From: Opitutales bacterium
GTDB lineage: Bacteria; Verrucomicrobiota; Verrucomicrobiia; Opitutales; PNEW01
Direction: 5' to 3'
Length of the DNA stretch: 64,000 nt
Assembly (NCBI GenBank): GCA_965197745.1
Contig: CBDANS010000007.1
Location: 242,985 to 306,984 of the forward strand
The translations under genes and the position numbers were made by a program. The notes beneath the pieces were generated by a model. That model did no database searches, had not been told where the DNA came from, and saw nothing but the letters and a program-made list of their open reading frames with translations. Each line of letters begins with the position of its first letter. Position 1 is the first letter of the stretch. Positions 43,364 through 64,000 of the stretch are shown one piece after another.

Positions 43364-44614
43364 TTATTCGGGAGAAAACGCAGCGACTTTTATAAAGGCA
43401 TCATCAGCCATACAAATAGCCGCATCGATATCTGATTCCTGGTGAGCGGCGTTAACGAACCAATTGTGGTGGGGGTGAAAAAAAACACCGTTTTCCATAC
43501 AATATCCACTAAATTTTTGCATGCGCATTAAATAGGATTCTCCATAAAAACGCATGTATGGTAAAGCGGGCGGTCCAGAACATTTTACTTCAATTCCATG
43601 TTTTGCCGCAGCATTCTCCAGACCCTGCGTGAGACGTCTGCCCATATTCTCGAGGTGTTCAACAACCTTATCTCGCTTGAGAATATGAAGGCAGGTTAGA
43701 GCAGCCGCCATGGGCACTGCACTGAACCAATAGCTGCCTGTCATAAAAACCTTGCTTGCGGCCTGTTTAATATCTTCACGTCCGAGCGCGGCAGAAAGGG
43801 GGTAGCCGTTGGCAATCGCCTTACAGTAACAGGCAATGTCAGGAGTAAAATCAAATACCCGGTGTGAACCCCCGTGATGGAGGCGAAATCCAGCCCTTAT
43901 GTCGTCGAGAATTAATACGATGCTTTCACTTCTACAGGTATTCTCGATCTCCTTTAAATACCCCTCCGCCGGCAATAGGGAATCAGCAGCGCCAGGGTGA
44001 TGGTATGGAGTCGTAAATACAGCCGCAATTTGATCTTTGTGTTGTGTAATCAAATCGTGGAAGCTTTTTAAATCATTCCATTTATAGGTGTGGGTGTGAA
44101 CATGATCTTCCTCAATGGAACCGCTCGTTACCCGCTGGGAACACCAGGAGGCGGTGCCATGGTAAGCGCCCTCGACGGTCAGGACTTTTTTACGACCAGT
44201 ATATTCACGTGCGATTTTAGTAGCCCAGTGTATCATGTCAGATCCGTTTTTCCCAAAGACAGCCCAATCGGCAAAATCTATCGTATCTACAAGATATTCA
44301 GCTAATTCAACGAACCGTTCGCTGGGATGATTGAAACAATCCCCAGCTTTACTTTGTTCATCGGCTGCAGCGCATACTTCAGCGTTATTATGACCTAAAA
44401 TGATGGGGCCATAACTGCAGAGGAAATCAATGTATTCGCGTCCATCGATGTCCCAGTAACGACAGCCGTCAGCGCGAGCCGCAAAATAGGGCGCAATTCC
44501 TGGTACGGTGTTTGCGGGACTGTTATGACCGTAGATCCCGCCGGGAATGACTTGAACCGCGCGTTCAAATAGTTTTTGAGTGTTTTTTGCAAGCTTCGGC
44601 GCTTTAGTTTCCAT
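43364..44614 (-). CDS. Class III PLP-dependent aminotransferase (glutamate-1-semialdehyde aminomutase-like)
   Basis: 416 aa. N-terminal GGIYGHNS...YFAARADGCRYWDIDGREYIDFLCSYGPIILGH. Length and motif order fit the aminotransferase class III family. The substrate cannot be inferred. Confidence 0.75.
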   Translation of the reverse strand: METKAPKLAKNTQKLFERAVQVIPGGIYGHNSPANTVPGIAPYFAARADGCRYWDIDGREYIDFLCSYGPIILGHNNAEVCAAADEQSKAGDCFNHPSERFVELAEYLVDTIDFADWAVFGKNGSDMIHWATKIAREYTGRKKVLTVEGAYHGTASWCSQRVTSGSIEEDHVHTHTYKWNDLKSFHDLITQHKDQIAAVFTTPYHHPGAADSLLPAEGYLKEIENTCRSESIVLILDDIRAGFRLHHGGSHRVFDFTPDIACYCKAIANGYPLSAALGREDIKQAASKVFMTGSYWFSAVPMAAALTCLHILKRDKVVEHLENMGRRLTQGLENAAAKHGIEVKCSGPPALPYMRFYGESYLMRMQKFSGYCMENGVFFHPHHNWFVNAAHQESDIDAAICMADDAFIKVAAFSPE

Positions 44615-45389
44615 GATTGAGATATAATGAAATACGATCGCTGATCAGCCCCAGGCGTTCGGCTAAGGTGATATCTCCTTCAATGCGTAAAGATCCCAAT
44701 CCAATTTCCGCCATGTTGATTATTTTGTTACGAAATGCCGCTAATGCAATATTGGAATCTTCAAATATAATTTTTACGTCCGGGGAGTGGGGAGGTGCGC
44801 CCTTACCGTGATTGATTTTACCTCCCTTCCATTGAATCCAACCGGTAATATCACAGTCATTGATTGTTAAATATGCCAGTCCCTCCGGTGTCGCTTTTAT
44901 GAGTTGACGGGATGTCTCTTCGTTTTCACCTAACTCTTTTGTCGCCGCTAAAATGATCCCGAAGAGGATTTTTAAATGCTTAGCACGAAATGCCGAATCC
45001 TCCAGAGTGTTGGCGTCCGGTTGCACGTATTTTGTAAAAAGAGTGCTTAGGTGTTTAAATATAATCAGTTGCTTTATCCGCCAGCACCCCCGCGTTATTA
45101 AAGGAAAAGCAAAACCGCTTTGATTAAACATGTGGTTAAGTTGTCGCTCGGAGAGGAAAACCATTTTTATCGCTTTTGCATTATCGTTCGCTCCCATAAA
45201 CTCGCAGCAACCGTTCTCAAATTTAATCACAGCATTTAATTGAGAGCGTGTGCTGATAGAGATGGAAAAATTCGTTTTTCCGAGGATTTGCTTAGCCTCA
45301 GGAACCACCGTCATAAAATCCTCGAAAGCGTAAAGGACAGCGTTAAGATGCAATCGACAAAGAATATGATCTTCAGCAGCGGAATTCAT
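44604..45389 (-). CDS. Hypothetical protein, no family recognised
   Basis: 261-aa ORF. Its stop overlaps the downstream aminotransferase start by 11 nt, and it begins 8 nt after the upstream GT stop. Coding status is supported by this operon context only. Confidence 0.5.
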   Translation of the reverse strand: MNSAAEDHILCRLHLNAVLYAFEDFMTVVPEAKQILGKTNFSISISTRSQLNAVIKFENGCCEFMGANDNAKAIKMVFLSERQLNHMFNQSGFAFPLITRGCWRIKQLIIFKHLSTLFTKYVQPDANTLEDSAFRAKHLKILFGIILAATKELGENEETSRQLIKATPEGLAYLTINDCDITGWIQWKGGKINHGKGAPPHSPDVKIIFEDSNIALAAFRNKIINMAEIGLGSLRIEGDITLAERLGLISDRISLYLNHGN

Positions 45390-45397
45390 CGATCTAT

Positions 45398-46510
45398 TTA
45401 AGGGATTAAATGGTGGATCTTTTCCAGAATGTCGATGGGGTGTTGCCGGGGCCGGACCGCCTCCATCTTTGCTTTTTCATCCTCGCGGGTTCGAGGGTTG
45501 TTCATCCAATCTTTCAGCATGTCCGGAAGCTGGCGTGCTCTATTTATGGTCCTTGCGAATCCATGCTTTTGGCAGTATTTCAACGTGATGTATTCCTGGG
45601 GCATGACTCCCCCCATAGTATTATGTATTATTGGGCAACCGGTAACTATGGCTTCACTCGTGGTTCCAGTCCCGGGGCGAGCTAATATCGCTGAAGCGCC
45701 TTGTAGCAGTTGGTTCATATTCTCGTGATACCCCAGGGGTGTGATTTGCCAATCGGAAAATTGATTTGCCCAGGATATTATTTTGCGGTGAGATTTTTTA
45801 TTATAACCACAGAGAGCCGTTACTTCAGGTTTTAACGCTGCTCTTTTTAAAGCTTTTAAAAAAGATAAATGGTTGTGTGCGCTGTTCGCGCCTGTTGATA
45901 GAATGAGCTTAAAATTTTTATTATATTCTTCCTTTGTGGGGTGATTGTAAAATTCGGGTTTAAGGAGAAAACCCCCACACCAGTTTTTGTCTTTCGGCAT
46001 TCCCCATTGCGTTGCGGCTTCACAGGTTTCTGGTACCGCGCCGATAAAGAGATCGCATTCCGAATTTACCCAGTGTTTGCTGAAACCATATCCCCCGTAG
46101 AGTTCGCCACAGTAGGTAACACATGCCAGTGGTGATTTTATTCCTTCTTGAGCCATTTTAAAAAACCCATGATTGAGATGTCCGTGGGTGCTTATAATTA
46201 TCTGTGGCTGATAAGATTTAATAAGTTTTCGATATTTGTTTTTACCCAGCAATCTCCCCTTCGATCGATGCATGGAGGCAAGCTCAAGATAATTGAAATA
46301 AAGATGGTGCAGGCGGGGAGATCTTTTCTGAATAAAATTATAAAGACTTACACCGAAAGCGTAGAGAGGGTGGGTTAACTCTAAGGCTGAGTGTATGGAG
46401 ACTTCAAAATTAAACTTACGCGCATCATCCGTTTGTGCCCATGCTTTGAATGCCTGCGCGCGCATGTTATGGCCGCCGCCAGTGCTCGATGTCAAAATGA
46501 GAATTCGCAT
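45398..46510 (-). CDS. GT28 / MGDG-synthase-like glycosyltransferase (diacylglycerol or lipid glycosyltransferase family)
   Basis: The N-terminus MRILILTSSTGGGHNMRAQAF matches the MGDG_synth / UgtP-type signature (ILIL(T/S)xxxGxGH). The C-terminal half has a GT-B motif (ARPGTGTTSEAI). Confidence 0.7.
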   Translation of the reverse strand: MRILILTSSTGGGHNMRAQAFKAWAQTDDARKFNFEVSIHSALELTHPLYAFGVSLYNFIQKRSPRLHHLYFNYLELASMHRSKGRLLGKNKYRKLIKSYQPQIIISTHGHLNHGFFKMAQEGIKSPLACVTYCGELYGGYGFSKHWVNSECDLFIGAVPETCEAATQWGMPKDKNWCGGFLLKPEFYNHPTKEEYNKNFKLILSTGANSAHNHLSFLKALKRAALKPEVTALCGYNKKSHRKIISWANQFSDWQITPLGYHENMNQLLQGASAILARPGTGTTSEAIVTGCPIIHNTMGGVMPQEYITLKYCQKHGFARTINRARQLPDMLKDWMNNPRTREDEKAKMEAVRPRQHPIDILEKIHHLIP

Positions 46511-46676
46511 TATGGTGTAAAAGGTGGATCTGAAACCTGCCTATTCTAATTCCACTTGATTTTATGTTGGGTGCAAATCATTTAGTCCATGGGTATTCGA
46601 GTTATGGCGTAATTATTTGTTATCTATGGTCATGCCTGTTGACTTAGAGACTTAAACGAACGATAATTAAAACGCC

Positions 46677-47606
46677 ATGTTGATCGCATCGCGTAAGCAG
46701 GTCTACTCTTTAGCGTCTCCCAGCGCTGGTTACATTCCGGAGGCGATAGGGGATGAAAAAACTATCCTGTGTCTGCACGAGGGAAAAGATCTGTCCGTTA
46801 TTGTATATGAAGGAGGTGAACTCGCATTACGTTCAAATGGTCATACCCATAATGTTCATTCCGATGTAGTGGAATCGATTGAATGCGTCACCATCATAGG
46901 CGAAGTCCCCCCGCTGGTATTAATGGGAACGGAAGCGCCTCATCTCTATCAAATTTCAGATAATGGTAAACCAGCAAAACGTATGATTGCATTTGATCAA
47001 CTTAATGCTCGCGATCAGTGGTATACACCGTGGGGAGGTCCTGCCTCCGTGCGCAGCATCGCCCACACAGGCGATTGGGTCTATGCCGATATCCACGTTG
47101 GCAGCATCATGCGTTCCCCCGATCGTGGCACTACCTGGGAACCGGTGAAACCAACCTTACACGAAGATGTCCACCAGGTAATTACCTCTCATCTTGCCGA
47201 AACGCGTGTTTATGCCAATACGGCAGACGCTGTTTATGTCAGCGAGGACCATGGGAACTCATGGGAACATCGTGCCAGTGGTCTGAGCGCTCGCTATGGT
47301 CGTGCCATCGCAGTGCATCCCCATGAACCGGACTGCCTCCTCGCAACCGTGAGTCAAGGTCCCGGATCTGATGTTAATGGTCAGCTCTATCGCTCAGATA
47401 ATGTGGGGCGCACCTGGTCCCATGTTACTTCCGGGTTTCCTCCTTCAACCTATAATAATATCGACACATTCCAGGTCACTTTTTCATCAGATGGCACGGC
47501 ATGGGCGGTAGTAGAAAAGGTCCTTTATAAAAGTGATGACCGGGGTAATACCTGGGAGATCTCCTGGGAAGCTTCGGATGAAATAATAATGCTTTCATGC
47601 GCATGA
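46677..47606 (+). CDS. BNR/Asp-box repeat beta-propeller protein (sialidase / Ycf48-like fold)
   Basis: Four Asp-boxes (SxDxGxTW): SPDRGTTWE, SEDHGNSWE, SDNVGRTWS, SDDRGNTWE. Confidence 0.75.
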   Translation: MLIASRKQVYSLASPSAGYIPEAIGDEKTILCLHEGKDLSVIVYEGGELALRSNGHTHNVHSDVVESIECVTIIGEVPPLVLMGTEAPHLYQISDNGKPAKRMIAFDQLNARDQWYTPWGGPASVRSIAHTGDWVYADIHVGSIMRSPDRGTTWEPVKPTLHEDVHQVITSHLAETRVYANTADAVYVSEDHGNSWEHRASGLSARYGRAIAVHPHEPDCLLATVSQGPGSDVNGQLYRSDNVGRTWSHVTSGFPPSTYNNIDTFQVTFSSDGTAWAVVEKVLYKSDDRGNTWEISWEASDEIIMLSCA

Positions 47607-47637
47607 TCATCACTTGTCCACTCAGAGAATTTTAAAT

Positions 47638-48426
47638 TTAATTTTTTCTCAACCAGCAAAACGAGTCTAGGAGAAAGAGAGAAATGCGTTGCTGGAATTT
47701 GAGTTTCATATAGGCAGTACCATCTTTAGGGGTGTAGCCAAGAAGCTTACAAGTTTGCCTGATATCGTATTGGCATTGGTAGTGACGTGAGAATCCATGA
47801 GCTATCGCAAAATCTATCCCGTCAACTTCAATGCACTGTTCAATTAAATGAGCAGAATCTCCTAGCGTAATCCAATTTGCTCGCTTTATCGGATCATTTT
47901 CAGGCGCTTTTTCTACAATACCACCGAAGCGAATACAGAGAGAGGAAAGACGATGCATATGAAAGAAACTTTGTGCTAGAGCCTCGCCAAAAACCTTGCA
48001 TGAGCCATATACATACAACGGGTTTGGGGCAGATTTCGGGGTAACTCTCATTCCATCGGGATACCCATTTATCGCGTTCACGCTGCTCGCATAAATAACG
48101 CGGCGACATCCCTGATCCGCAGCTGCCCGGTATATGTTATATACCCCTATGACATTACATGCTAATAAGGTATCGTAAAAATCAGCTTTTTGCGATGGAT
48201 CCGCGGCCAAATGGACCACCGTGTCCATTCCCTTACATGCCATCTGCATATCCTCAAGTTTGCTGATATCCAGCTTTTGGAAATCCGTATTCTTCTTTAA
48301 TGGATAATCTAAATTGCGAATATCCGTTAATCGAAGATCGTAACGATCCTGCCATTGGCACCCCAAATAACCGCCTAGATTTCCCGCGGCGCCTGTTATT
48401 AAAACTTTTCTCTTGGATTCAGACAT
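47638..48426 (-). CDS. NAD-dependent epimerase/dehydratase family SDR
   Basis: KVLITGAAGNLGGYL and YGSCKVFGE (YxxxK). I prefer ATG 48426 (MSESKRK...) over 48453. Confidence 0.75.
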   Translation of the reverse strand: MSESKRKVLITGAAGNLGGYLGCQWQDRYDLRLTDIRNLDYPLKKNTDFQKLDISKLEDMQMACKGMDTVVHLAADPSQKADFYDTLLACNVIGVYNIYRAAADQGCRRVIYASSVNAINGYPDGMRVTPKSAPNPLYVYGSCKVFGEALAQSFFHMHRLSSLCIRFGGIVEKAPENDPIKRANWITLGDSAHLIEQCIEVDGIDFAIAHGFSRHYQCQYDIRQTCKLLGYTPKDGTAYMKLKFQQRISLFLLDSFCWLRKN

Positions 48427-48493
48427 TAAAGATCTCAAAAAGGGGATTATCACAGGTTGTGATGTAAAACCCCGCGATATTTACAATCTTAAT

Positions 48494-49675
48494 TTAATGT
48501 TCAGCACTTTGGCTACCAGTGTGCTGTGCATGACTGGTCGTAAAACGCATCTTTATTCGCTCCCATAATTTAGCAACCACAAAGAGCGGTATTTGCCATG
48601 GGTTTTTTAAACCCCAGATATCCTGAAGGTAACCGGGAAATCCAAAAATCTTTTGTCGTAAACTGCTATTTTTTACCAGTCTTAAATAATTAAAACAGTG
48701 CCCGGGAAATACACCTAAGATACCAATTGGTTTATCTTTAAGGCGATATTCCATGCGTTCGATTAAGGGATGGGGAACATCATCGAGGGTTTCCAGAACC
48801 CACGGGGGCACCGAGACGTTAAAGTTCATTTTTATATAATTTAAGGTGTCCCTTAGGGGTAGGGTAAGCCAACGATTAGTGGCTTGCCTCACGAGGCGAT
48901 CCCAGTCTACTTCAGCAGATGATGTTCTGAAAATAATCATGGCATCAGCTATCCAGCGAATGGGCGGAGTCAGATTCCACCTGGCCCCATGAACACAAAC
49001 ATGAAAAAGCAGATCGGTGGCATTTTCACATCGAGTGGGTACACCCACAAAATCTGTTTCGACGGATCCAGACCAGACAGGATCGTCAGCGTGAGGTTGT
49101 CGGCCCTGGGGAAAAAGATACCAGTGCACGTCGATTGCCTGTCCGCGTTCATTGACAAATGATCCCGCATTGCTGCGACTGAGTATCTTGTCGATGGTCA
49201 TCCATTCATCTTTTAAGTGCCACCTATTATCTAATAACAGATTGATAGCCTCTTTGGCTTTCGAGACTGGGATTAATATATCGATATCGTCCATGGGACG
49301 TAAGCCGTGATCACGATAGTGCATCAGGACCAACGCTCCTCCTTTTAAAATCATGGTCTCAATCCCTTTTTGCTGCAGGGCTTCTAGAAGCGGAGCGGTT
49401 TGATGAAAGAGTAACTGATTTTGGGCCCAATGATAGCGGTAGACTCCTTTCATCTTTTTCATCATAGGATCATCAATTCCTGCTTGGGTCAGGTTGTGAT
49501 GAAGAAGGGGCAACAACCGATGGGAACCGGGATCTAATTTTTCAATGTCAATTTTTGATCTCCACGAGTACCAGGCGCTTTCCACTTCATCCTTGCTCAG
49601 TAGGCAGGCCCGAAGCATTAACTCCTGTTCCTGGTTCGGCCAGAAACCCTTCGCCTTAATCTTTTTCCCCCTCAC
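48494..49675 (-). CDS. Nucleotidyltransferase family protein (NTP_transf_5 / PF14907-like)
   Basis: 393 aa. ILKGGALVLMHYRDHGLRPMDDIDILIP (Pol-beta-type NTase G..(D/E)xD core). The start overlaps the upstream GT2 stop by 4 nt. Confidence 0.7.
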   Translation of the reverse strand: MRGKKIKAKGFWPNQEQELMLRACLLSKDEVESAWYSWRSKIDIEKLDPGSHRLLPLLHHNLTQAGIDDPMMKKMKGVYRYHWAQNQLLFHQTAPLLEALQQKGIETMILKGGALVLMHYRDHGLRPMDDIDILIPVSKAKEAINLLLDNRWHLKDEWMTIDKILSRSNAGSFVNERGQAIDVHWYLFPQGRQPHADDPVWSGSVETDFVGVPTRCENATDLLFHVCVHGARWNLTPPIRWIADAMIIFRTSSAEVDWDRLVRQATNRWLTLPLRDTLNYIKMNFNVSVPPWVLETLDDVPHPLIERMEYRLKDKPIGILGVFPGHCFNYLRLVKNSSLRQKIFGFPGYLQDIWGLKNPWQIPLFVVAKLWERIKMRFTTSHAQHTGSQSAEH

Positions 49676-50373
49676 TCTGAAGCTCTACCTTGCTCTTTTC
49701 GCCTGCGATCGAGAGATGCTTTTATAATATTAGTAAACTCGGTAATTGAATCGCGTTTGTGCAGCATCGTATTAGACGTATGCAATCTTCGGCGCATGAC
49801 CAAATCGGGTATTACATTTATCTTGAGATCAAGTTCTTTGGCACGTAGGTACCAGCTCATAAATTCTCCAACCCCTAATTGCGTTTCAAATAATCCTACG
49901 CGAAAAAAAGCATCTCGTTTTACTAACATCGTGCCACAATGAATGCCCGCGATCACCTCATCAGGACAGTATAATTTTTTTTTCGCCTCACCATCTAAAT
50001 CCGGGCTTATAAACTGTTCCAGATGTCCAAATGCAATATCCAAAGTGAGATCAGCGTTGAAGGCCTCAATTTGCAAAGATAGCTTATCTTTTGTCCATAA
50101 ATCATCACCATCAAGAAATGCTAATAAATTTCCGTTTGCCTTTTCCACCCCAAGATTGCGAGCCGCGGCGATTCCTGCGTTAGGTTGAAAATAATAGTTT
50201 AGAGCATCCCCATAAGATTGGGCAATTTTTGCGCTATCGTCAGACGAACCGTCATCAATGACAATAGTTTCATACGGTTGAGAGGTTTGATTGAGTACGC
50301 TTTCTATTGATTCCGCGAAGTAATTTTCGCCGTTGTAGATGGGAATGATAACGCTAACCCGAGGCTTATCCAT
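49672..50373 (-). CDS. Family 2 glycosyltransferase
   Basis: VSVIIPIYNGENYFAESIESVLNQT and a DxD motif (FLDGDD). The preferred ATG 50373 overlaps the upstream stop (ATGGATAA, 8 nt). Confidence 0.85.
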   Translation of the reverse strand: MDKPRVSVIIPIYNGENYFAESIESVLNQTSQPYETIVIDDGSSDDSAKIAQSYGDALNYYFQPNAGIAAARNLGVEKANGNLLAFLDGDDLWTKDKLSLQIEAFNADLTLDIAFGHLEQFISPDLDGEAKKKLYCPDEVIAGIHCGTMLVKRDAFFRVGLFETQLGVGEFMSWYLRAKELDLKINVIPDLVMRRRLHTSNTMLHKRDSITEFTNIIKASLDRRRKEQGRASE

Positions 50374-51154
50374 TATGATGAGGGCCTTTTCCTGCCTCTT
50401 TTTGACGATCTTTGCTCGTGGCGACAAGAAAGTTGGATAGACTGGGTAGGGATGTCGCTTTACCCTTACTTTGTTTGCGGCGACGGTCTAATGATTTTTT
50501 TATCACTTCCATCAAATTTAATTCCTGCCAGTGGTTTATTTTTTGAGTGGTATTATTCTCGTGTCTTCGATAGAGCAGTGAAACCTGGGGCACGGTGATG
50601 ATCTTTACGCCACTTTCTCTGAAGCGAAAAAACCAATCTACATCTTCGCTCAAACGAAGGTCTGAATTAAATAAACCAATATTTTCAAAAACTGATTTTT
50701 TAACGATATAACTGCCCATGAGGGGAGCGAGAATGGGTTCACCCAGATTCTCAAACTCTATTTTTTCATCGTCGATCTGAACTTCGCGCACAAGCTGAGT
50801 TTGTCCCATTACTAAATCGACTTCGGAGTCGTCAAAATAGGGGAGTTGCCGTGATAAATTATTGGATGCCCACATGTCGTCCGCATCCAGAAATCCAATA
50901 ATTTTACTTCGTGAAATACTAAACCCGTGATTGCGTGCAGCCGCGGCCCCCTGGTTCTCCTGGTAAATATATTTAATGCCTTCACTAAATGACCTGGCAA
51001 TCTCTCCGGTTTTATCGGTCGAACCATCATCGACAATAATAATTTCCAGGGAAGAGTGTTTTTGTTGAAAGATACTATTCAGGGCGGTAGGGAGTACCCT
51101 TTCTCCATTATAAACGGGTATTATAACACTGATCGATGGCGGCTCAACGGACAT
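50366..51154 (-). CDS. Family 2 glycosyltransferase
   Basis: ISVIIPVYNGERVLPTALNSIFQQ and a DxD motif (FLDADD). The start overlaps the upstream kinase-like gene by 11 nt. Confidence 0.85.
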   Translation of the reverse strand: MSVEPPSISVIIPVYNGERVLPTALNSIFQQKHSSLEIIIVDDGSTDKTGEIARSFSEGIKYIYQENQGAAAARNHGFSISRSKIIGFLDADDMWASNNLSRQLPYFDDSEVDLVMGQTQLVREVQIDDEKIEFENLGEPILAPLMGSYIVKKSVFENIGLFNSDLRLSEDVDWFFRFRESGVKIITVPQVSLLYRRHENNTTQKINHWQELNLMEVIKKSLDRRRKQSKGKATSLPSLSNFLVATSKDRQKEAGKGPHHNG

Positions 51155-52253
51155 TAATATTTTCAGTAAGGAGTTGTGTAATCACTTCTGGTATGGTGGA
51201 TAGGTTTGTGCCCAGTTCCAGTTGATAAGATTGAACTTTTGTAACCAGATTTGCCATCGTGCGAAAAGCCTGTTCACCGGCGCCGGGTAATTGAAAAATC
51301 GTGCTCGGCGCCAGTTCTCTTAATGCCATGGCTGGAGTCGTCTTAGAAAATTTGGATGCGGATAACCCCGTGATTCGTGGTAAAAGTATCGCTTTTATCG
51401 GCAGATTGGAAGTGAATTGTCGTTCGTAGTTATCATATAAATACAATAGCGCTTTCTCATCCAATGCTCCATCGTCATTAATAATGTTCTGCTTAAGATG
51501 AGTGAATCTTTGTAAATTGTCTGGTTTTAGTTTTGCCACACAATAAAGACTAAATACCTCGGGAGTTTTTTCAGTGCTGATAAGAGAATAGTCATCACCA
51601 AGATATAATAATCCAGCATCGAGGCATGCCAAGGAAGAGGACGATTTACCCGAACCACCTTTACCTACCAACAAAACTGCACCTTCTCGTGTTCCTACCG
51701 CCGCAGCATGCATGATCTGTCGTTGATGGTTACTTAGCCATAAGTGAAGTATGGTACGAAGGGGATAAGCCATTTCATAATAGGCAATACGCGATGCATC
51801 CGCGGCCCAGAAAATTGCAACATTTTCCTTCATATCAATAATACTAAGGATGTTACTATCAATTTGAAATACCGTATGAATCCTGGCGTTGTTGTTATAT
51901 TTAATTTCTTCTCGAGGTGAGTAATCGTCGCTATGCCAGGGAGGGGTGGGCATGGAAATGCCTGATGATTTACTGTCCCACAAGTAAATAGTAAGCGATT
52001 TTTTCGGGGTGGGAGCTGTCCTCAAGTGGGAGAGCGCCAGGGTGGTTGGGGTAACCAAGGTTCGACCCGCAAACTGTAGTAAAATATTGTATCCTCCCAC
52101 CTCATAATATTGGTCAATAACCTCTCCTTCATTTTCTTTCGCACGATTAAAATTTGCGCGTGCGATTTTGAAATATTCTAACGGTCTAAAGTTGCTTTTG
52201 TCCTCAGCCCCGTTTTCAGTTTTCAATGGGGACATCTTCTCGGAATTCGGCAT
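51144..52253 (-). CDS. HprK-related P-loop kinase-like protein (HPr kinase C-terminal-domain homologue)
   Basis: 369 aa. AVLLVGKGGSGKSSSSLACLDAGLLYLGDDYSLI parallels the HprK motif GxSGxGKSE..L.L...GH.LVADD. Confidence 0.7.
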   Translation of the reverse strand: MPNSEKMSPLKTENGAEDKSNFRPLEYFKIARANFNRAKENEGEVIDQYYEVGGYNILLQFAGRTLVTPTTLALSHLRTAPTPKKSLTIYLWDSKSSGISMPTPPWHSDDYSPREEIKYNNNARIHTVFQIDSNILSIIDMKENVAIFWAADASRIAYYEMAYPLRTILHLWLSNHQRQIMHAAAVGTREGAVLLVGKGGSGKSSSSLACLDAGLLYLGDDYSLISTEKTPEVFSLYCVAKLKPDNLQRFTHLKQNIINDDGALDEKALLYLYDNYERQFTSNLPIKAILLPRITGLSASKFSKTTPAMALRELAPSTIFQLPGAGEQAFRTMANLVTKVQSYQLELGTNLSTIPEVITQLLTENINVR

Positions 52254-52283
52254 TTGCTTGGAATATAACCCGAATTTGTGGGG

Positions 52284-52739
52284 TCACTTTATTTCCTTAG
52301 GATTAGTTCGAGGCCATCCCATTTCGTCAACTTCGTGGATGGGGTCGATGAGCAGGAGCTCCTGCATGTCCGTAAATTTTTGTAATGTTGGTCTTTCAAA
52401 TGGAAGTTTATCAATATTTTTATCATCTGTTGAATTTTCATCGGGTGAAGATTGATCGTCATTATTAATCTCTGAAGATGTAACTAACGAATCATTTTTA
52501 AGTTCATCAACGAATCGGGTAACTTCATCATTAATATTAATCCCATTGCTTAAATATTCTTTATTCAAAGTATTGACGATGTAATCTACGGTGGTCGTAT
52601 TTTCCAGGAGGTTCCATATGCGAACGCCGACATTGAGCAAACTGTAATAATCTCCAGTATTAAGATTGATAATGACAACTTCACCTTCGATATTCTGGTG
52701 AACAATGTTGGGCTGATTAATTTGAAATTGTGGGGGCAT
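52284..52739 (-). CDS. PqqD-family peptide-binding (RRE) protein with a long acidic C-terminal extension
   Basis: The N-terminal ~90 aa, IEGEVVIINLNTGDYYSLLNVGVRIWNLLENTTTVDYIVNTLNKEY, is the PqqD / RiPP-recognition-element pattern. The C-terminal ~60 aa is Asp/Ser/Asn-rich and ends LLLIDPIHEVDEMGWPRTNPKEIK. Confidence 0.75.
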   Translation of the reverse strand: MPPQFQINQPNIVHQNIEGEVVIINLNTGDYYSLLNVGVRIWNLLENTTTVDYIVNTLNKEYLSNGININDEVTRFVDELKNDSLVTSSEINNDDQSSPDENSTDDKNIDKLPFERPTLQKFTDMQELLLIDPIHEVDEMGWPRTNPKEIK

Positions 52740-52923
52740 TGTTGAATTAATTTCTAGAACAGAAAATAAATAAATAATATATTGAATTATGAATTAGTTT
52801 GGTTGCCCATAATATATGATCTCCTTACTTAATCAATTTATAAATCTTATCCATTATATAAAAATGATAACCTGCTTTCCCTGTAGTCATGTCATCATAT
52901 AAAATACCTCTATCTTGATCAAG

Positions 52924-56131: not shown

Positions 56132-57277
56132 ATGTGGGCGCATTTATGGCGATCACACAGTGCGGCGCAAAAATATATGACCCCATTGATAGTAGCCATA
56201 ACCTTTACTCTCGGAGTTTCCGCGTTCTGTTCTTTAATGGAAGCTTTTATTCTCAGTACTACCACCGCGGAAATTGAAAGCCTCAAGCAAAGTTATCCCA
56301 AGCGAGGGCACCTTCTCGATAAATACAAGAATGACATTGAGGAGACAACATCGGCCATTCTTACCCTCAATACCATTGCCAATACCCTGGGTGCCACCCT
56401 CGTCGGCGTCCTCGCTGGTAAACTATTTGATAAGTTCTGGGTAGGTGTTATTTCCGGGGGACTGGTCCTGGGAATACTCATTTTTTCTGAAGTTATTCCG
56501 AAAAATCTGGGGGTAATTTACCGGAAGCAATTGCAAAAGAATCTTGTTTACCCCTTGCGTATGGTGAGATGGGTAATGATACCGTTCTCTTTCTTATGTA
56601 AGTTTTCGGTGCGTCTTATTATTCGAAAAAAGCCTACCATGAGTACTACGGAGCAAGAGCGTGAAATTTTACTGCTAGCTGAAAAAAGCGCTAAGGAGGG
56701 TTCCCTCTCTCACAATGAGAGTAATATGATCCATAATGCCCTTAGCCTTGATGACATCCTGATCAGCGACATTATGACGCCGCGTACCGTGGTAACCGCA
56801 ATGGATCAGAATCTTACAATCGAGAATGTCTTTCGAAACCATAAAAATATACCCTTTGCGCGCATCCCCGTTTACGATGAGACGATCGATAATATTGTAG
56901 GCGTTGTTCGCCGCCGTGATCTTCTTCAGGCGCGTGCGGATGACCGTGATAACGTGACCGTTGCCGAACTGAAAGGGGAGGGCATCTTTGTCCCTGAAAC
57001 CGCAAACGCGGCTGACGCGCTGCAGCTGTTTCTCAAAAATCACCAGCAGCTGGGGGTGGTCGTCGATGAGTTTGGATCAACCGCGGGTGTTGTTGCGATG
57101 GAAGACATCGTGGAGCATATTCTCGGGCGTGAAATTTATGAAGAATCGGATATCGCGGTTGATATGCGGGCATTGGCACGCAGTAAAGCGCGAAATAATG
57201 AGCAAAATACACCCGAAGACAAAGCACGTCTTCCTCGTAGAACTAATCCGGCGACTATTCGTCGTCCGGCATCTTAA
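56132..57277 (+). CDS. CNNM/CorC-HlyC family transporter (DUF21 membrane domain plus CBS pair)
   Basis: N-terminal 4-TM DUF21 domain (SEVIPKNLG) and a CBS pair (DIMTPRTVVTAM..., VVDEFGSTAGVVAMEDIVEHILG). The start may instead be the internal Met at 56177. Confidence 0.8.
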   Translation: MWAHLWRSHSAAQKYMTPLIVAITFTLGVSAFCSLMEAFILSTTTAEIESLKQSYPKRGHLLDKYKNDIEETTSAILTLNTIANTLGATLVGVLAGKLFDKFWVGVISGGLVLGILIFSEVIPKNLGVIYRKQLQKNLVYPLRMVRWVMIPFSFLCKFSVRLIIRKKPTMSTTEQEREILLLAEKSAKEGSLSHNESNMIHNALSLDDILISDIMTPRTVVTAMDQNLTIENVFRNHKNIPFARIPVYDETIDNIVGVVRRRDLLQARADDRDNVTVAELKGEGIFVPETANAADALQLFLKNHQQLGVVVDEFGSTAGVVAMEDIVEHILGREIYEESDIAVDMRALARSKARNNEQNTPEDKARLPRRTNPATIRRPAS

Positions 57278-57301
57278 AAATCATTTTATTTAAAGTATAG
57301 G

Positions 57302-58144
57302 GTGCCAGCGACAAATCCAGGTGGAGCGCCGGATTACTGGGTGCATGATTTGGACCCTTTCCTATTGCGGTTCAGTGAAAATTTTGGACTGCGCTGGTAT
57401 GGATTCTCCTACATTCTGGGATTTGTCGCCGCCTATTTTCTACTGCGGCTATACTATCGTAACAACCGGTCGCCCTGGAATGCCGACCAGTCTCTCAATG
57501 CGATATACGCTATAGCTATCGGTATCATTATCGGAGGTCGGGTCGGCTACGTCTTACTCTATGATTTTCAGAATTTCGTTCATAATCCTTTATCATTATT
57601 CAAAGTCTGGGAAGGGGGTATGGCCAGTCATGGAGGATTTATCGGCCTGGCGCTTGCTCTTATATGGTTGGCGCGTAATACTGAGATCTCATTTCTCAAA
57701 GCAAGTGATATAATCGTTACCCTGGCCCCTCCAGGTCTGTTCTTCGGAAGGATAGCTAATTTTATTAACGGTGAACTCTGGGGTAAAATAACCGATGTAT
57801 CCTGGGCCGTCAAATTTCCCGCGAGTGCGCCACCTGGAACGCCGATTGAACTCATCTCCCCACGGCATCCTTCCCAATTATACGAAGCCGCACTCGAAGG
57901 TTTGTTCCTTTTAATCTACACGCAAGTTCGTTTCTGGTGGGGCAAGTCCGACAAAACGCATGACGGTCAAATCTGTGGTGAATTTTTACTTCTTTACGCC
58001 ATCGTTCGGATCATCGGTGAACAGTTCCGCGAACCCGATGCCGGCCTCATCCTCGGTCTCAGCCGTGGTGTGTTTTATTCTCTCTTTCTCGCCCTGGCGG
58101 GAATTGGATTTATCCTTGTCGCCCGCAGAAGAACAAGAAGTTAA
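57302..58144 (+). CDS. lgt: Prolipoprotein diacylglyceryl transferase
   Basis: WYGFSYILGF, VWEGGMASHGGFIGLALA, GRIANFINGELWGK. GTG start. Confidence 0.9.
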   Translation: MPATNPGGAPDYWVHDLDPFLLRFSENFGLRWYGFSYILGFVAAYFLLRLYYRNNRSPWNADQSLNAIYAIAIGIIIGGRVGYVLLYDFQNFVHNPLSLFKVWEGGMASHGGFIGLALALIWLARNTEISFLKASDIIVTLAPPGLFFGRIANFINGELWGKITDVSWAVKFPASAPPGTPIELISPRHPSQLYEAALEGLFLLIYTQVRFWWGKSDKTHDGQICGEFLLLYAIVRIIGEQFREPDAGLILGLSRGVFYSLFLALAGIGFILVARRRTRS

Positions 58145-58166
58145 CCGCAGAAGAACAAGAAGTTAA
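58123..58166. repeat. Perfect 22-bp tandem duplication (2 copies plus a partial third) spanning the lgt stop codon
   Basis: cgcagaagaacaagaagttaac occurs at 58123-58144 and again at 58145-58166, followed by cgcagagg... Confidence 0.95.
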
Positions 58167-58479
58167 CCGCAGAGGCACAGAGAGTGAAAAGACAGAATAG
58201 CCACAAAAGGCACAAGAAAGAGATTTTTAAAAAGTAAGAATTACACCCGTTGTCATTGAGAGGATCCCGCAAGTGCGGGGACGCGGCAATCCAGGAAGAC
58301 GGATGACAATTACCGATTCAGCTTAAAGATTATTAACCGCGGAAAACACGGATTAATACGGATGTTTAAATATTTACTATAAAATTCGCACAAAACGAAT
58401 GTGACTCTATACACTATGGACCCCGTTTCCATTTTTGAGAAACTTATCCGCGTGATCTGTGTAATCCGCGGTAATCTCT

Positions 58480-59930
58480 TCAGCATCTGCGGCGGAAACG
58501 CCAGAAGATTAAGAGACAACCCATTCCCATCAGGGCCCAGGTGGAGGGTTCGGGGACAACCGTAAGGGAGAGTGTCCCAAATTCATCGTCATAGAAAGGC
58601 TGGAAAAAATTGCCGGGATTTAATGAGGATCCACCCACATCCACTGTGATGTTGTCGAATGCACCCGACCTCGTTCCGTCCCAGGATATGGCAAGAATAT
58701 TGTCACCAATCAGGGGCACGTAATCTTCGAGAAAAACATTAAGCGTGCCGCTTGAAAATGTCAGGTCACCGGATCCGGTATCATCGAGAATGCGTAAAAA
58801 ATTAGCGCCCGGGCCCTCACCTGAATCGAAAACAGTGATATCTAAAAAACTACCGGCATTGAAGGTAACACTTCCATCCACTCTTAAATTAAAGCTTTGA
58901 TCGACAGTGATTTGTCCTGAGTTCATGATATCGCTTATGATGAGACCTCCTCCTTCTAATTCCCCCAGTGATCCGACCGTGATACTGTCGGCAATTAAAG
59001 TGCTTTGATCATATACTCCCAAAAATCCCTCTCCAAGGTTACCCACATAAATATCATTTATCATTAAAGTTGATCCACCACTGGCTGAGGCATCATCTAC
59101 TACAAGCTCGGAAGCGACACTACTCGCCTGGTTGCCTATAATTACAGACGCATCGATAGTAGGAGTAGCGGTATTATGGACGTGGAAGGTTCCCTGCCCG
59201 GCATCTCCGACAATGATCGAACCCTCTCTGATGGCTGGCTTACCTGGGTCCCCATATGAAGCTGGGAACCTGCTCCATCAATGGCAAACTTGCCGTCTGA
59301 CCCCGAGTTTACGCCCAGGGTTAAAGTACTCGTATTGATCACTTCAACCAAGCCTCCATCGATTATATCGACAAGCCCGAATTCGTTAATACCGATGTTC
59401 AAATCGTTGGCGGTAAAAATGGAACCGGTATTGTAAACATTAACAATACTCGGACCATCTACGCCGATATCAGCAGTATTTGTGATATTTAAAATGCCCG
59501 TTGATGACACACCGTCTCCAATATCGAGTTGGCTGTAAGTCGAATTGAAGTTACTTGAGGTGTCCAGGCTGCTTGCGTTTACCGTTCCATTCTTAATTAG
59601 CAGGGTAGCAGTATCCTCGTCATTGTGAGCGAGGGACAGGGAATTATTTAAGGTCAATGTATTAGTCGATAAATCAAAAGTGACAAAATCATTTTCAACT
59701 TCGAGACTGTGGACCGTGGGACTGGAACTGAAGGAAACGGTATAGGATGAACCAAGATCAAATTCTCCGACAACACTGGTATTGGGAACACCAAAATTCC
59801 AATTGGATCCGTTGCTGAAATCGCCACCTGAGGTGTTAGTCCAATTAGTATTTGAAACGGATGCTTGCGTTGAAAACCAACCCAAGCATAGAAAAACAGG
59901 TAGGAACGCAATTACTTTCAGCTTCAACAT
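58480..59930 (-). pseudogene. PEP-CTERM beta-helix surface protein, paralog 1, frameshifted
   Basis: The N-terminal part (59142-59930) carries signal peptide MLKLKVIAFLPVFLCLGWFSTQASVS. The C-terminal part (58480-59064 and upstream in the same frame) ends VVPEPSTWALMGMGCLLIFWRFRRRC. The frames switch at tcagagagggt (plus-strand ctctct, 59224-59229), which has +2 nt relative to paralog 2. Confidence 0.8.
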
Positions 59931-60194
59931 GAGATCAACAGGTAGGTGTAAATTTCAATTAACACCCTATAAAAGATATGGTTTGAAGACAAGCTTAATC
60001 GGGGCTGTCCATTGCTGATTTTCGATTGTCGATTTAACACAACGGATTTAACAGTGTGTAAACTCAGTTTGGTCAATCTTTTGATCAATGTAATCCGTAA
60101 AATCCGTGGTAAATGGATAGATAGCCACGGAGACCTGAATAGAGCTTATAACAACAATTACCCTGAAAAGTAATCGTTTCCAGTTTTTTAAATC

Positions 60195-61477
60195 TCAGCT
60201 TCTGCGGCGGAAACGCCAGAAGATTAAGAGACAACCCATTCCCATCAGGGCCCAGGTGGAGGGTTCGGGGACAACCGTAAGGGAGAGTGCCCCAAATTCA
60301 TCGTCATAGAAAGGTGAAAAAAAATGTCCGGGTGACAATGAAAGCCCTTCAAAATCTACTGTGATGTCCCCGAAGGTTCCCGTTCTTAATCCTTCCCAGA
60401 AGAGGACATCGAAACTATCGCCAATTTCAGGTACCACATCGGAGATAAATAGATTGAGCGTTCCACTCGAAAAAGTTAAGTCACCGCTGCCATTAGAATC
60501 TATAATATCTAAGTTGTTAGAGCTGAGTCCCTCATCTTGAAAGATAACAATATTCAAAACACTGCCAGCTTTAAAGTCGACGCTTCCATCAATGGTCAGT
60601 CCAAAAAACATACTCATTGGGGTGATTTCGCCAAATATGTCAACGTCGCTTCTGATCGTGCTATCACCTTCAATACTACCTAGAGATCCAACCGTGATAC
60701 TATCAGCGATTAGCAGGCTACTATCAAATACCCCCAGGAGACCCTCACCCAGGTTACCAACCGTAATATCATTTACCGTTAATGTGGATCCACCGCTGAA
60801 TGTTTGATCATCCACAACAAGCTCGGAAGCGACGCTGCTCGCCTGGTTGCCGATGCATCGATGGTAGGGGTTGCGGTATTGTGCACATGAAAAGTTCCCC
60901 GCCCGGCATCTCCGACAATGATTGATCCCTCTGAACCTCCACCAACCTGGGTGCCCATCAGCAGTTGAGAGCCTGTGCCGTCAATAGCCAACTTGCCATC
61001 TGACCCGGTATTCAAGCCGAGAGTTACGGTGAGAGGACTGGAAATTTCCACCGTTGCGCCGTTAAAAATATCAACTAAAGCCGTCCCTGAAACCCCGGAA
61101 TTCAAGTTGCTGGTTTGGAGGGTGCCATTTATAAGCGTAAGATTCGCAATATCCGAAGCGGTTAAGCCGAGATCTGTGTCATTGGTTACGGTCAGGGTGT
61201 TGTCATCGAAAAGATCAAAAATAACAGAGGTGTCAATGATATCTAAATTGTTCACGGTGTGATCCGACATGATTGACACCACCGGGGTAGAGGTCGGTTC
61301 AACATTAAAAACGACATTAACGGAACTGGTAGGAACGACAGCATTAGACCAATTACTGCCCGTATCAAAATCACCTCCAGATGCGCTGATCCAAGTCCCA
61401 TTCGGTAAGGATGCCAAACCGTTATTCAAGGACAAGCTGAGAAGAACAGAGAGTGCTACTAAGAATTTCAGCTTCAT
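60195..61477 (-). pseudogene. PEP-CTERM beta-helix surface protein, paralog 2, frameshifted
   Basis: The N-terminal part (60779-61477) carries signal peptide MKLKFLVALSVLLSLSLNNGLA. The C-terminal part (60195-60815) ends VVPEPSTWALMGMGCLLIFWRFRRRS. The two ORFs overlap by 37 nt in different frames. Relative to paralog 1, 10 nt (tataattaca) are missing at 60851/60852. Confidence 0.8.
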
Positions 61478-61740
61478 GTATGATCAATTAATATGCCGGA
61501 AAATAATTTGCTGTAGCGATAGTAGCTACAGCAATTACTGTAAAACAATAATAATAACTCTATATTATCTATTGTATAATGACAAGATTAAACGCCATTC
61601 AGATACGCTATTAACCGCTGAATTACTGGACTCAGACAGCATTAAGAGGAGGGGTAAGTGACAGGGGCACGCCCTCTCTTATTTGTCTTTCTTGTGCCTC
61701 TTGTAGCTATACTAATCTCTCAGTTTCTCCTTCGAAGTCG

Positions 61741-63249
61741 TCAGAGGACGAGGAGGCAGCCCATCCCCATCAGCGCCCAGGTCGAGGGCTCGGGGACAAC
61801 TACGAGGTCGAGAGAGTTGGCATTGTAAACAGGGGTAAAAAACAGATTACCATCATCAAAACCAAACTCGTCATCGACGGAACCGAATTGACCGGTCAGC
61901 GTCCCGGTCCAGGTGAGCACCGTAAATATATCACCAAATTGGGGCAATGTTCCACCGAGGAGATCTATTTCCAATGAACCGCTCGAGAAAGACAAGTTAC
62001 CGGTGACATTTAATACACTCCAGTCAATGGCATCTAAGATGGAAACCTCGTAAGTACTTCCGGATTCAAACACAAGATTGTTCACGACATCGAGTGGCCA
62101 TGTTGTATCAGGCGCAATGGTGCCGAAATTGTGAAAGGTATCAAAATCGGTGTTTATTTTACCTGCTCCTTTAATTTCACCGTAATTTATTAAATCACCA
62201 ACTACTTGTAATTCCGATTGATTACCACCTGCTGTAAACATTTCTATGACTCCATTCGTCCCGACTGTTACCTCATTGCCATAAAGAGTTCCATCGTAAT
62301 GTATATTAACCTGGTTAATGGGACCAGAGGGACCGACTGTGCCCACGAAAATATTATCAGCTTCCATATAACCTCCGGCAGAACCGCCACCATAGATATC
62401 TACGGTTCCCTCTCCACCCAGACCTACTTGCAGATCGCCGGTAACCCATATACTTGAATTGTCATACAACTCAACGATTCCTGTGCTGCCTGTATCAAAG
62501 CCGATAACCATGTCACCACCGACATCGACATGTGCAGTATCCGGATAGCCGGTTACTACAAGCGACCCATTTCCGTTGCCTCCGATGATGAAACGGCCCT
62601 TAATATCAAGATTCGCATTACCTGATTCATTGGTGGCATCAAGGCGAATTTCACCGGTGCTGCTGGCGTTAACACCGACAATCGCATCGTTTCCACTTAT
62701 ATCATTGTTAACAGTGAATACCGCACCTTCTAATACTTCGAGCAAGCCATCACCTGTAGCGTTACGACCGACATTCAAATCTAAGGTGTCGAAAGTAATC
62801 GCATCGATGACATTAAGATGTGCCATTCCGGAAGTTCCGATTTCTGTAAGAAAATCGACGTCCACTATGCCATTCTTTATGGTCAAATTAGCGTCATCAC
62901 CAATGTCAGGCGCGAGGACAAAACTTGCCGATGGACCGGTACTGTCAACGGTCAGGGTTTTCGTGTTCAGATTCATGATTAAAAAATCACTGGGCGCATC
63001 AGAATCATGAATTTCCAGTCGGTCCACGGTGTGGTTCGCAGAAAAAGTTGCCGTGGGTGATGTTGACGGGTTACCATCGAAAATAGCATTTCCGGTAGCA
63101 TCGGGAACGGTTGAAAAATCCCAATTGGTACCCGTGTTAAAATCACCGCCGGAAGTGTTAGTCCATATACCGATTGGAATAGATGCCGACGCTGATATCC
63201 CGCCCAGGCAGAGAAGAAGAGGGAGTAAATATAAAGTTCTAACATTCAT
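61741..63249 (-). CDS. PEP-CTERM beta-helix surface protein, paralog 3; uninterrupted ORF, but the sorting tail is truncated by TGA
   Basis: Signal peptide MNVRTLYLLPLLLCLGGISASA (preferred ATG 63249), G/N/T-rich beta-strand repeats, and a C-terminus VVPEPSTWALMGMGCLLVL*. The stop aligns with the Trp of paralogs 1 and 2, and RLRRRN* is encoded in frame just after it. Confidence 0.8.
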   Translation of the reverse strand: MNVRTLYLLPLLLCLGGISASASIPIGIWTNTSGGDFNTGTNWDFSTVPDATGNAIFDGNPSTSPTATFSANHTVDRLEIHDSDAPSDFLIMNLNTKTLTVDSTGPSASFVLAPDIGDDANLTIKNGIVDVDFLTEIGTSGMAHLNVIDAITFDTLDLNVGRNATGDGLLEVLEGAVFTVNNDISGNDAIVGVNASSTGEIRLDATNESGNANLDIKGRFIIGGNGNGSLVVTGYPDTAHVDVGGDMVIGFDTGSTGIVELYDNSSIWVTGDLQVGLGGEGTVDIYGGGSAGGYMEADNIFVGTVGPSGPINQVNIHYDGTLYGNEVTVGTNGVIEMFTAGGNQSELQVVGDLINYGEIKGAGKINTDFDTFHNFGTIAPDTTWPLDVVNNLVFESGSTYEVSILDAIDWSVLNVTGNLSFSSGSLEIDLLGGTLPQFGDIFTVLTWTGTLTGQFGSVDDEFGFDDGNLFFTPVYNANSLDLVVVPEPSTWALMGMGCLLVL

Positions 63250-63524
63250 AGTGATAAAACAGGAGTTGGAAATAAAACAGGTGTAGTTCCCCATTTGGGG
63301 AATAAAATAACCATATATTAACTATCGCGCTATGACAAGATTTTACGTGTTCTCGGGTGTATTTTTTTGGCAACTTTTCACCACGTTCTCCCGGTAAAAA
63401 AAATTCTATTACATTGGAATAATTTTTTGACACCTTCCCCATTTTTGTATTACACCTTGCGGAAATCACACCAAAAAATCGCGTCAACAGTTGACAAAGA
63501 GGAATTTAAGTAGATTTATTAGTT

Positions 63525-63860
63525 ATGAATATTGTCGCATATTTAAAACCGCAATGTGGATGGAGCAGGGGAGTCCGCGCTATTTTTGAAAAGTACAGCC
63601 TCGAATACGAGGACAAGGATATTATTAATAATCCGGATATTTACGCCGAGATGGTGGAAAAAACCAGCCAGCCGTTGGCCCCTTGTGTGGAAGTCGACGG
63701 TGTCATGCTTGCTGATGTCAGTGGGGAAGAAGTGGAAAATTATCTTCTCAGCAATCAGTTGGTAAAACCATCGGACCATAAAACTGGGGTGCCAACCAAT
63801 TCAGCCTGCTCAGACGAAGAGCACGCGAGAATGGGCTCCCAGACAATCCGGTTTTTTTAA
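63525..63860 (+). CDS. Glutaredoxin-family protein with a monothiol-like CGWS motif
   Basis: 111 aa. MNIVAYLKPQCGWSRGVRAIFEKY... follows the thioredoxin-fold beta-alpha start. CGWS resembles the CGFS active site of monothiol glutaredoxins. Confidence 0.6.
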   Translation: MNIVAYLKPQCGWSRGVRAIFEKYSLEYEDKDIINNPDIYAEMVEKTSQPLAPCVEVDGVMLADVSGEEVENYLLSNQLVKPSDHKTGVPTNSACSDEEHARMGSQTIRFF

Positions 63861-63871
63861 CAGGCGCTATA

Positions 63872-63894
63872 CGGGGTAACTCCCCACCTTTTTA
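63872..63894 (+). terminator. Candidate intrinsic terminator after the glutaredoxin-like gene
   Basis: gggg (63873-63876) pairs with cccc (63882-63885) across loop taact, followed by accttttt. A second hairpin, gaccggg-aagacaag-cccggtc (63901-63922), is followed by gctgttta. Confidence 0.35.
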
Positions 63895-64000
63895 TAAGCC
63901 GACCGGGAAGACAAGCCCGGTCGCTGTTTATACGGAGATAGTAGTAAAGAGGAGTGATTTAATTGAATAGACAGTGGTAAAATGAAAAAACAAGCTTCCC

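Follow-up and report, generated by a model that had tools for sequence, protein, structure and literature searches.

The window analysed here is a stretch of 64,000 nucleotides from a 2,142,214-bp contig (NCBI, ENA) of an Opitutales bacterium, and its subject is a group of three tandem paralogous genes for PEP-CTERM proteins with a predicted beta-helix. Between 58480 and 63294, on the minus strand, five open reading frames (ORFs) make up these genes, which we call P1, P2 and P3 and which correspond to members of a four-gene array (T1 to T4) found in related genomes. P1 (58480-59930, minus strand) is a T3-type gene whose two ORFs lie in different frames, an N-terminal one of 262 aa (59142-59930) and a C-terminal one of 194 aa (58480-59064). 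P2 (60195-61477, minus strand) is a chimeric paralogue that would have 430 aa if intact and is likewise divided between two frames, with ORFs of 232 aa (60779-61477) and 206 aa (60195-60815). P3 (61741-63249, minus strand) is T1-type, has 502 aa from its MNVRT start and is missing only the end of its sorting signal; one gene caller gives it 517 aa by using an upstream ATG at 63294. Users of annotations should be warned that the called ORFs of 262, 194, 232, 206 and 517 aa are pieces of three genes.

The common layout that a preliminary description had read from the sequence is present in all three genes: a signal peptide, the motif W-x-[NS]-x-SGGDF-x-x-G-x-NW, a beta-helix region and a PEP-CTERM tail, with VVPEPSTWALMGMGCLL encoded near the C-terminal end of P1, P2 and P3. 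Each copy comes with its own start codon and signal peptide, and its spacer measures about 260 nt. A terminator-like hairpin between P3 and P2 (61508-61534, minus strand; a 10-bp stem followed by a T-run, a consensus match only) suggests that these two genes form separate transcription units. Promoter-like sites at the locus number 14, against 10.8 ± 3.8 in shuffled sequence, which is no excess over expectation, and an Rfam scan of positions 57000-64000 found no element.

Each gene carries one lesion, defined by a three-way nucleotide alignment of P1, P2 and P3 and by alignments to orthologues. At 59224-59229 (minus strand) P1 reads AGAGAG where P2 and five T3 orthologues read AGAG, a 2-nt AG insertion that turns (AG)2 into (AG)3 in cAGAGAGgg and causes a +2 frameshift, with the shifted frame ending at the stop at 59142-59144; removing 2 nt from AGAGAG yields an ORF of 482 aa, equal in length to the intact orthologue in the relative L090. 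P2 has lost 10 nt between two direct repeats of CATCGG, of which one unit is left; the junction of this deletion lies at 60850-60855 (minus strand). The intact allele reads ATCGATG-CATCGG-TAAT-CATCGG-CAAC, so one unit of the 10-nt period has been lost, and the shifted frame ends at the stop at 60779-60781.

In P3, a TGA at 61741-61743 (minus strand) replaces the conserved Trp codon TGG of the tail, and the gene ends in ...VVPEPSTWALMGMGCLLVL-TGA (...CLLVL-TGA), followed in frame by RLRRRN and another TGA. Trp occupies this position in all 27 other family tails, and the P1 and P2 tails read ...CLLIFWRFRRR(C/S) at the same place. The stop takes WRLRRRN off the tail, and the untranslated remnant at 61720-61740 (minus strand), RLRRRN and then a stop, is the basic cluster of the PEP-CTERM signal. 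Undoing one event per gene gives full-length ORFs of orthologue length, and the downstream frame is still fully open in each broken gene. An insertion, a deletion and a nonsense change, each at its own site, bear out the earlier proposal of three independent lesions in one family: a frameshift in P1, a second at another site in P2 and a premature stop inside the sorting signal of P3.

We compared the lesions across assemblies of near-identical strains, namely a contig of 3,106,837 bp (ERZ25072076, 36x), one of 30.7 kb (ERZ25072670, 7x) and Logan contigs (ERR13605531). Each of the four assemblies that span the P1 site has the insertion (the window, L001, L002 and the Logan contig L006), and the P3 TGA is there in three of three. 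The P2 deletion is found in two (the window and the 3.1-Mb contig) and is absent from the 30.7-kb contig, which encodes an intact P2 of 430 aa (P0007, in L002/L005); the strain with this intact allele differs by just two single-nucleotide polymorphisms (SNPs) and two indels over 15 kb, and the window and the 3.1-Mb contig differ at four positions in 15 kb. None of the three window lesions is a change of homopolymer length. TGA is the stop codon of 12 of the 39 other long window genes, and an alternative code in which TGA is read as Trp or Gly was rejected on this ground. All of these 39 genes are uninterrupted, including an ORF of 4032 aa, so that lesions affect three of three family genes and none of the 39 others (hypergeometric probability ~9e-5). 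Because the lesions recur across independent assemblies, involve no homopolymer and, in P3, use a normal stop codon, the three window lesions are real. A protein homology search gave no intact P1 allele, but the same search missed the window's own fragments, which are present in the collection searched, and its silence is therefore weak evidence.

Among the strains, the 30.7-kb contig has 21 extra nt (ATCTCCACCCGCGTCACGCGA) at 56153 and the 3.1-Mb contig 1 extra T at 56066, both upstream of the CNNM/CBS gene (56177-57277), and five of the eight strain differences in 15 kb fall in or beside the paralogue locus.

The domain and fold matches support the family assignment made earlier (signal peptide, autotransporter-like beta-helix, PEP-CTERM). 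Repaired P1 scores 26.5 with Pfam PF07589 (cut-off 20.7) and 23.5 with TIGR02595 (cut-off 16), repaired P2 scores 27.3 and 22.9, both above cut-off, and the intact P2 allele P0007 also gives 22.9 with TIGR02595. With TIGR02595, P3 reaches 14.8 as encoded, which is below the cut-off, and 22.2, above it, with its TGA read as Trp: the encoded protein stops after ...GCLLVL, leaving the tripartite signal (PEP motif, transmembrane helix, basic cluster) incomplete. The basic cluster of arginines is one of the three defining parts of this signal (PMC3237569). In P1 and P2 as encoded, the signal peptide lies on the 262- and 232-aa ORFs and the tail on the 194- and 206-aa ORFs, not on one polypeptide. 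The repeat model TIGR04393 (cut-off 23 bits) matches P3 with 26.8-32.1, the T2 orthologue P0009 with 45.3 and the T3 orthologue P0002 with 24.4; repaired P1 (22.2) and repaired P2 (17.8) fall just under the cut-off.

An AlphaFold2 model of the intact P2 allele (pLDDT 85.2, pTM 0.82) is an all-beta helix with a single C-terminal helix (residues 409-429), which corresponds to the PEP-CTERM tail and is predicted to be transmembrane. The top Foldseek matches in the PDB are 7jvi (a metagenomic beta-helix), pertactin, Ssp, EspP, SepA and Hap, with probabilities of 0.75-1.0 and TM-scores of 0.23-0.30. A Pfam scan found no Autotransporter domain, and there is no beta-barrel translocator. Each gene of the array is thus predicted to encode a Sec-exported right-handed beta-helix protein that ends in a PEP-CTERM exosortase sorting signal and not in a beta-barrel. 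At full length the family is narrow, with 8 cluster representatives at E<1e-30 among 1.84 billion proteins.

The host is a marine-type bacterium from a small clade of uncultured Opitutales (Verrucomicrobiota), and the closest genomes are metagenome-assembled genomes labelled Opitutales bacterium. About ten related lineages share the neighbourhood, with grx and gltBD on one side of the array and lgt, CNNM and gcvTH on the other. One of them (L090) has four tandem genes, all intact, T1 of 530 aa, T2 of 647, T3 of 482 and T4 of 542. Compared with this array, P3 is the T1 orthologue, P1 the T3 orthologue and T4 is absent. P2 is chimeric, T2-like at the N-terminus and T3-like at the C-terminus, and gene A of L010/L012 has the same make-up. 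From these comparisons, the four-gene array appears to be old and conserved, and the window trio would be what is left of it.

The split structures of the window genes are not shared by their orthologues, and the related arrays have lesions of their own. T1 has an in-frame nonsense codon in L088, T4 a frameshift in L011 and the T2/T3 chimera a TAA stop in L010/L012. In L009, one copy has TAG for the Trp of PEPSTW and an IS1595 insertion has removed the start of T3, and in L007/L008 three of four copies are broken, identically in two samples. A marine lineage from JGI (L094-L099, 14 contigs) keeps a single T1 copy, which is split at a run of G7 (G6 would restore the frame), so that every copy but one has been lost and that one is broken. 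Independent lesions thus occur in at least six other lineages; among them are each of the three stop codons, indels, insertion of IS1595 and loss of copies.

The insertion in L009 is an IS1595-family transposase gene at 6944-7720 inside the array; the 5' part of the T3 copy is gone, and the TAG lies in the neighbouring copy. The marine T1 gene (L094, 8001-9535) is split at CTGGGGGGGTAAT (G7), directly adjoined by a polymorphic 4-nt indel (TAGG/GGTA); both indel alleles are out of frame, yet a downstream frame of about 430 codons and the PEP-CTERM tail are kept. Outside the array there are two further members of the family, an intact T1-like paralogue of 511 aa (P0013; L100, 9001-10536) with a PEP-CTERM score of 23.8 against the cut-off of 16, and a gene split into 325 and 171 aa at a G7 run (L101, 10001-11619), in a neighbourhood that also holds several prepilin-type N_methyl and GIY-YIG genes. 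Both are on a 2.29-Mb contig (ERZ25072076 ctg245869_35x) from the same sample as the 3.1-Mb sister contig, at 35x against its 36x, and this contig probably belongs to the genome of the window.

The window lineage is an outgroup to the other array lineages. Identity to intact orthologues is 68-72% for P1, in alignments that cover 99-100% of their length; P3 is 67-73% identical to its orthologues, and the flanking Grx, Lgt, CNNM, GcvT and MFS proteins are 62-85% identical to their counterparts. As the identities of P1 and P3 fall in the range of the flanking proteins, the array family has evolved about as slowly as its housekeeping neighbours. The codons of the P3 and P1 tails differ at seven synonymous sites, in two conservative replacements and by the stop, a pattern that indicates purifying selection on the sorting signal until recently. 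A single lesion per gene, slow divergence of orthologues, downstream frames that are still open and a P2 deletion that is still polymorphic together argue that the window lesions are recent.

Recombination has also left its mark on the locus. A tract of 138 nt over the tail is 96-100% identical between P1 (58480-58617, minus strand) and P2 (60195-60332, minus strand), and the coding sequence adjoining it is about 60% identical; on the sequence comparison, this is best read as gene conversion at the 3' end. Concerted evolution of the tails was considered and rejected, as tails from one genome are on average 0.850 identical, tails from different genomes 0.847, and only the P1/P2 tract is converted. 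Conversion takes place but leaves the family unhomogenised.

Taken together, we interpret the locus as having received genuine, recent and independent loss-of-function hits in a dispensable, loss-prone array of exosortase-sorted beta-helix proteins, with no recoding or switching involved, and we give this reading a probability of roughly 70%. It would be ordinary pseudogenisation, specific to lineages and recurring among them. An ancestral T1-T4 array would have stood between grx-gltBD and lgt, with T4 lost in the window lineage. P1 (T3 type) may then have gained its 2 nt by AG slippage, P2 (the T2/T3 chimera) may have lost its 10 nt by slipped-strand deletion between the 6-bp direct repeats, a change still polymorphic in the population, and P3 (T1 type) would have lost the cytoplasmic basic cluster of its sorting signal through a TGG-to-TGA nonsense mutation. 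The products of P1 and P2 would be exported N-terminal stubs of 262 and 232 aa without an anchor, and that of P3 a nearly full-length protein that keeps the PEP motif and the hydrophobic helix and lacks a positive-inside stop-transfer tail, so that little or no protein of this family is expected on the surface of the strain.

Repeated, independent hits to the array in related lineages make it likely that the family is dispensable and easily lost, with selection either relaxed or in favour of loss. Within the window the decay is confined to the family, and the further split member (325 and 171 aa) is likely from the same genome. The relaxed selection suggested earlier for the three genes fits in its broad sense, given the decay in at least six other lineages and the single broken copy of the marine one; the cause proposed for it, loss or absence of the exosortase, is a separate matter and is taken up below.

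Several points weigh against this interpretation. Support for the lesions of P1, P2 and P3 stands at the level of assembled contigs. Two of the lesions of relatives, that of L101 (G7 where G8 is expected) and that in the N-terminus of gene B of L007, fall in G-runs of long-read assemblies and could be assembly errors. The strains differ by just two SNPs within the genes, both nonsynonymous, with which neutral decay and selected loss are alike compatible. Poor retention or processing of P3 once its basic cluster is gone is what an analogy with LPXTG signals would predict. Finally, the scan for an exosortase covered the 64-kb window and the neighbourhoods L100 and L101 of a genome of about 5 Mb.

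Another explanation keeps the lesions as real losses and makes them adaptive: repeated knock-outs would be selected as an escape from a phage, grazer or host by which these exposed proteins are recognised, conversion between paralogues would occasionally restore function, and the array would act as a contingency locus free of repeats for exosortase-sorted proteins. Three single hits, the ON/OFF polymorphism of P2 and stops inside the sorting signal in two lineages are what this idea draws on, and we regard it as tentative and rather unlikely.

Also rather unlikely is the loss of the cognate exosortase, after which all PEP-CTERM substrates would be useless and would decay in parallel. It would explain why lesions struck three, and probably four, members of the family in a brief period and why one lesion takes away part of the signal itself. 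As the preliminary description had said of the window, no exosortase (PF09721/TIGR02602) was found by the domain scan among its annotated genes, nor in the neighbourhoods L100 and L101, and a screen of 77 loci for multi-transmembrane ORFs that could be exosortase candidates gave transporters only. The exosortase gene, however, need not be linked to those of its substrates (PMC3237569). An intact paralogue with a PEP-CTERM domain above the cut-off (P0013) lies on the same-sample contig of matching coverage, P2 is intact in a sister strain, each window gene has a single lesion, and all three tails still encode the same sequence near their ends, with mostly synonymous differences between P3 and P1. 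In relatives, broken copies stand beside intact ones in a single array, so that decay of this kind needs no loss of the exosortase, and we mildly disfavour this cause. Exosortases are often linked to polysaccharide-type loci; the polysaccharide-type cluster of the window (44600-52740) has two GT2 genes, NTP_transf_5, an epimerase, a PqqD-like gene, an MGDG-synthase-like GT, an aminotransferase and a BNR/sortilin-like gene, and no exosortase.

The preliminary description had also raised the possibility of a surface-antigen locus repaired by recombination. As a contingency or antigenic-variation locus, it would have copies that are switched or diversified by recombination between paralogues, the broken ones being reversible OFF states or donors. 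Several features could be taken this way, namely the P1/P2 conversion tract amid much less similar surroundings, the T2/T3 chimeras P2 and L010 gene A together with the mosaic P0009-type proteins, the ON/OFF state of P2 between near-identical strains, the recurrence of lesions in many lineages and the G7 tract of the marine lineage with its adjoining 4-nt indel polymorphism. Set against them, the orthologues diverge no faster than the flanking housekeeping genes (67-73% against 62-85% identity), the tails are no more alike within genomes than between them, and the P2 deletion and P3 nonsense change would be hard to revert. The locus has no G/C homopolymer of at least 6 and no simple sequence repeat (SSR) of at least 4 units, the sole homopolymer or SSR tract in 58480-63294 being an A8/T8 run away from the lesions; in the marine lineage both indel alleles are out of frame and the G7 run is invariant in six contigs. 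With a start codon, signal peptide and spacer for each copy, there are no promoterless silent cassettes.

Two forms of such variation were rejected for the window, repeat-based phase variation because no tract lies at the lesion sites, and an expression site with silent cassettes because there are neither promoterless partial cassettes nor fast diversification, even though one conversion tract exists. What stands of the surface-antigen idea is therefore the conversion tract and the chimerism of P2, and we consider the idea as a whole improbable.

Programmed recoding, with frameshifting in P1 and P2 and UGA read-through in P3, is very improbable: the downstream frames are fully open and P3 ends in UGA with C as the next base, a setting that is relatively leaky in other bacteria and at which near-cognate read-through would insert the ancestral Trp, but the three sites are not shared by the five T3 orthologues, the P2 sister allele or the 27 family tails, the intact sister allele marks the P2 deletion as a new mutation, neither shift site has a slippery heptamer, no Rfam element was found in the scanned interval, and the lesions of relatives vary in type and position. 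Equally hard to credit is that the genes are really intact and the lesions are artefacts of long-read metagenome sequencing and assembly, for which one could cite contig names (ctg..._36x_l) that resemble the output of a long-read metagenome assembler, the confusion that tandem paralogues may cause and the homopolymer-length changes among some lesions of relatives, against a dinucleotide insertion, a 10-nt deletion and a base substitution that recur in independent contigs of different samples, Logan assembly included, at 36x coverage, with the 39 other long genes intact and the marine gene split on 14 contigs from short-read assemblies.

If the array has indeed been subject to recent, independent loss, it offers, in one locus and about ten lineages, a natural series of intact, anchor-less, truncated and lost alleles that includes a segregating 10-nt deletion and two nonsense mutations within the sorting signal. 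Such a series could be used to ask whether the basic cluster is needed for exosortase sorting, and whether surface proteins of this type vanish when lineages change their lifestyle.

Elsewhere in the window, a single ORF of 4032 aa (1336-13434) encodes a hybrid type I polyketide synthase-nonribosomal peptide synthetase (PKS-NRPS) with KS-AT-...-ER/KR modules followed by an adenylation domain, and a sulfotransferase gene (13459-14580) comes directly after it; together they are a possible secondary-metabolite or sulfolipid locus. Next to the array, a 22-nt unit, CCGCAGAAGAACAAGAAGTTAA, occurs in 2.7 tandem copies at 58123-58188 and spans the stop codon of lgt (57302-58144), and just downstream of the gene there is a second copy of its 3' end with the TAA. 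We found no publication that names the accessions, and the publications found that join PEP-CTERM and pseudogenes concern unrelated organisms.

Among known systems, the closest is the PEP-CTERM/exosortase protein-sorting system (TIGR02595, PF07589), reportedly that of Haft et al. 2006 and described in PMC3237569. Its substrates are abundant in Verrucomicrobiota, where to our knowledge they are almost unstudied. The array shares with it the VPEP motif, hydrophobic helix and Arg cluster, N-terminal signal peptides and several paralogous substrates per genome, with repaired P1, repaired P2 and relatives above the profile cut-offs, and differs in that no array copy of the window strain encodes signal peptide, passenger and complete tail together. 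With TIGR04393 proteins and autotransporter passengers (pertactin 1dab, Ssp 8e7f, EspP 3sze, Hap 3syj) the family has in common short-strand repeats rich in G, N, T and D and a predicted right-handed beta-helix, and a close relative has been named 'T5SS/PEP-CTERM-associated repeat protein' by JGI. Unlike type V autotransporters, however, it has no beta-barrel translocator, so it is not a type V secretion protein, and the structural matches have low global TM-scores (0.23-0.30). Flocculation-associated PEP-CTERM proteins (PepA of Zoogloea, NF033554) are likewise exosortase-dependent surface or matrix proteins, and we know of no other PEP-CTERM class with a demonstrated phenotype (aggregation); the family matches their model with 18-21 against a cut-off of 80 bits, in the sorting signal only, and its passenger has no homology to theirs.

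The decay itself resembles that of phase-variable or decaying adhesin families of host-associated bacteria, for which the poly-G contingency loci and autotransporter pseudogenes of Bordetella and Rickettsia provide a comparison. Frameshifts, stops and insertions of mobile elements arise independently in related lineages in both cases, and one relative of the window family is broken at a poly-G run, as in poly-G contingency loci, whereas the window genes have no simple-sequence tract and their lesions are not readily reversible. Both the type of protein and the phenomenon are known, and what is new is modest: this particular array, its conservation across a clade of Opitutales and its recurrent decay.

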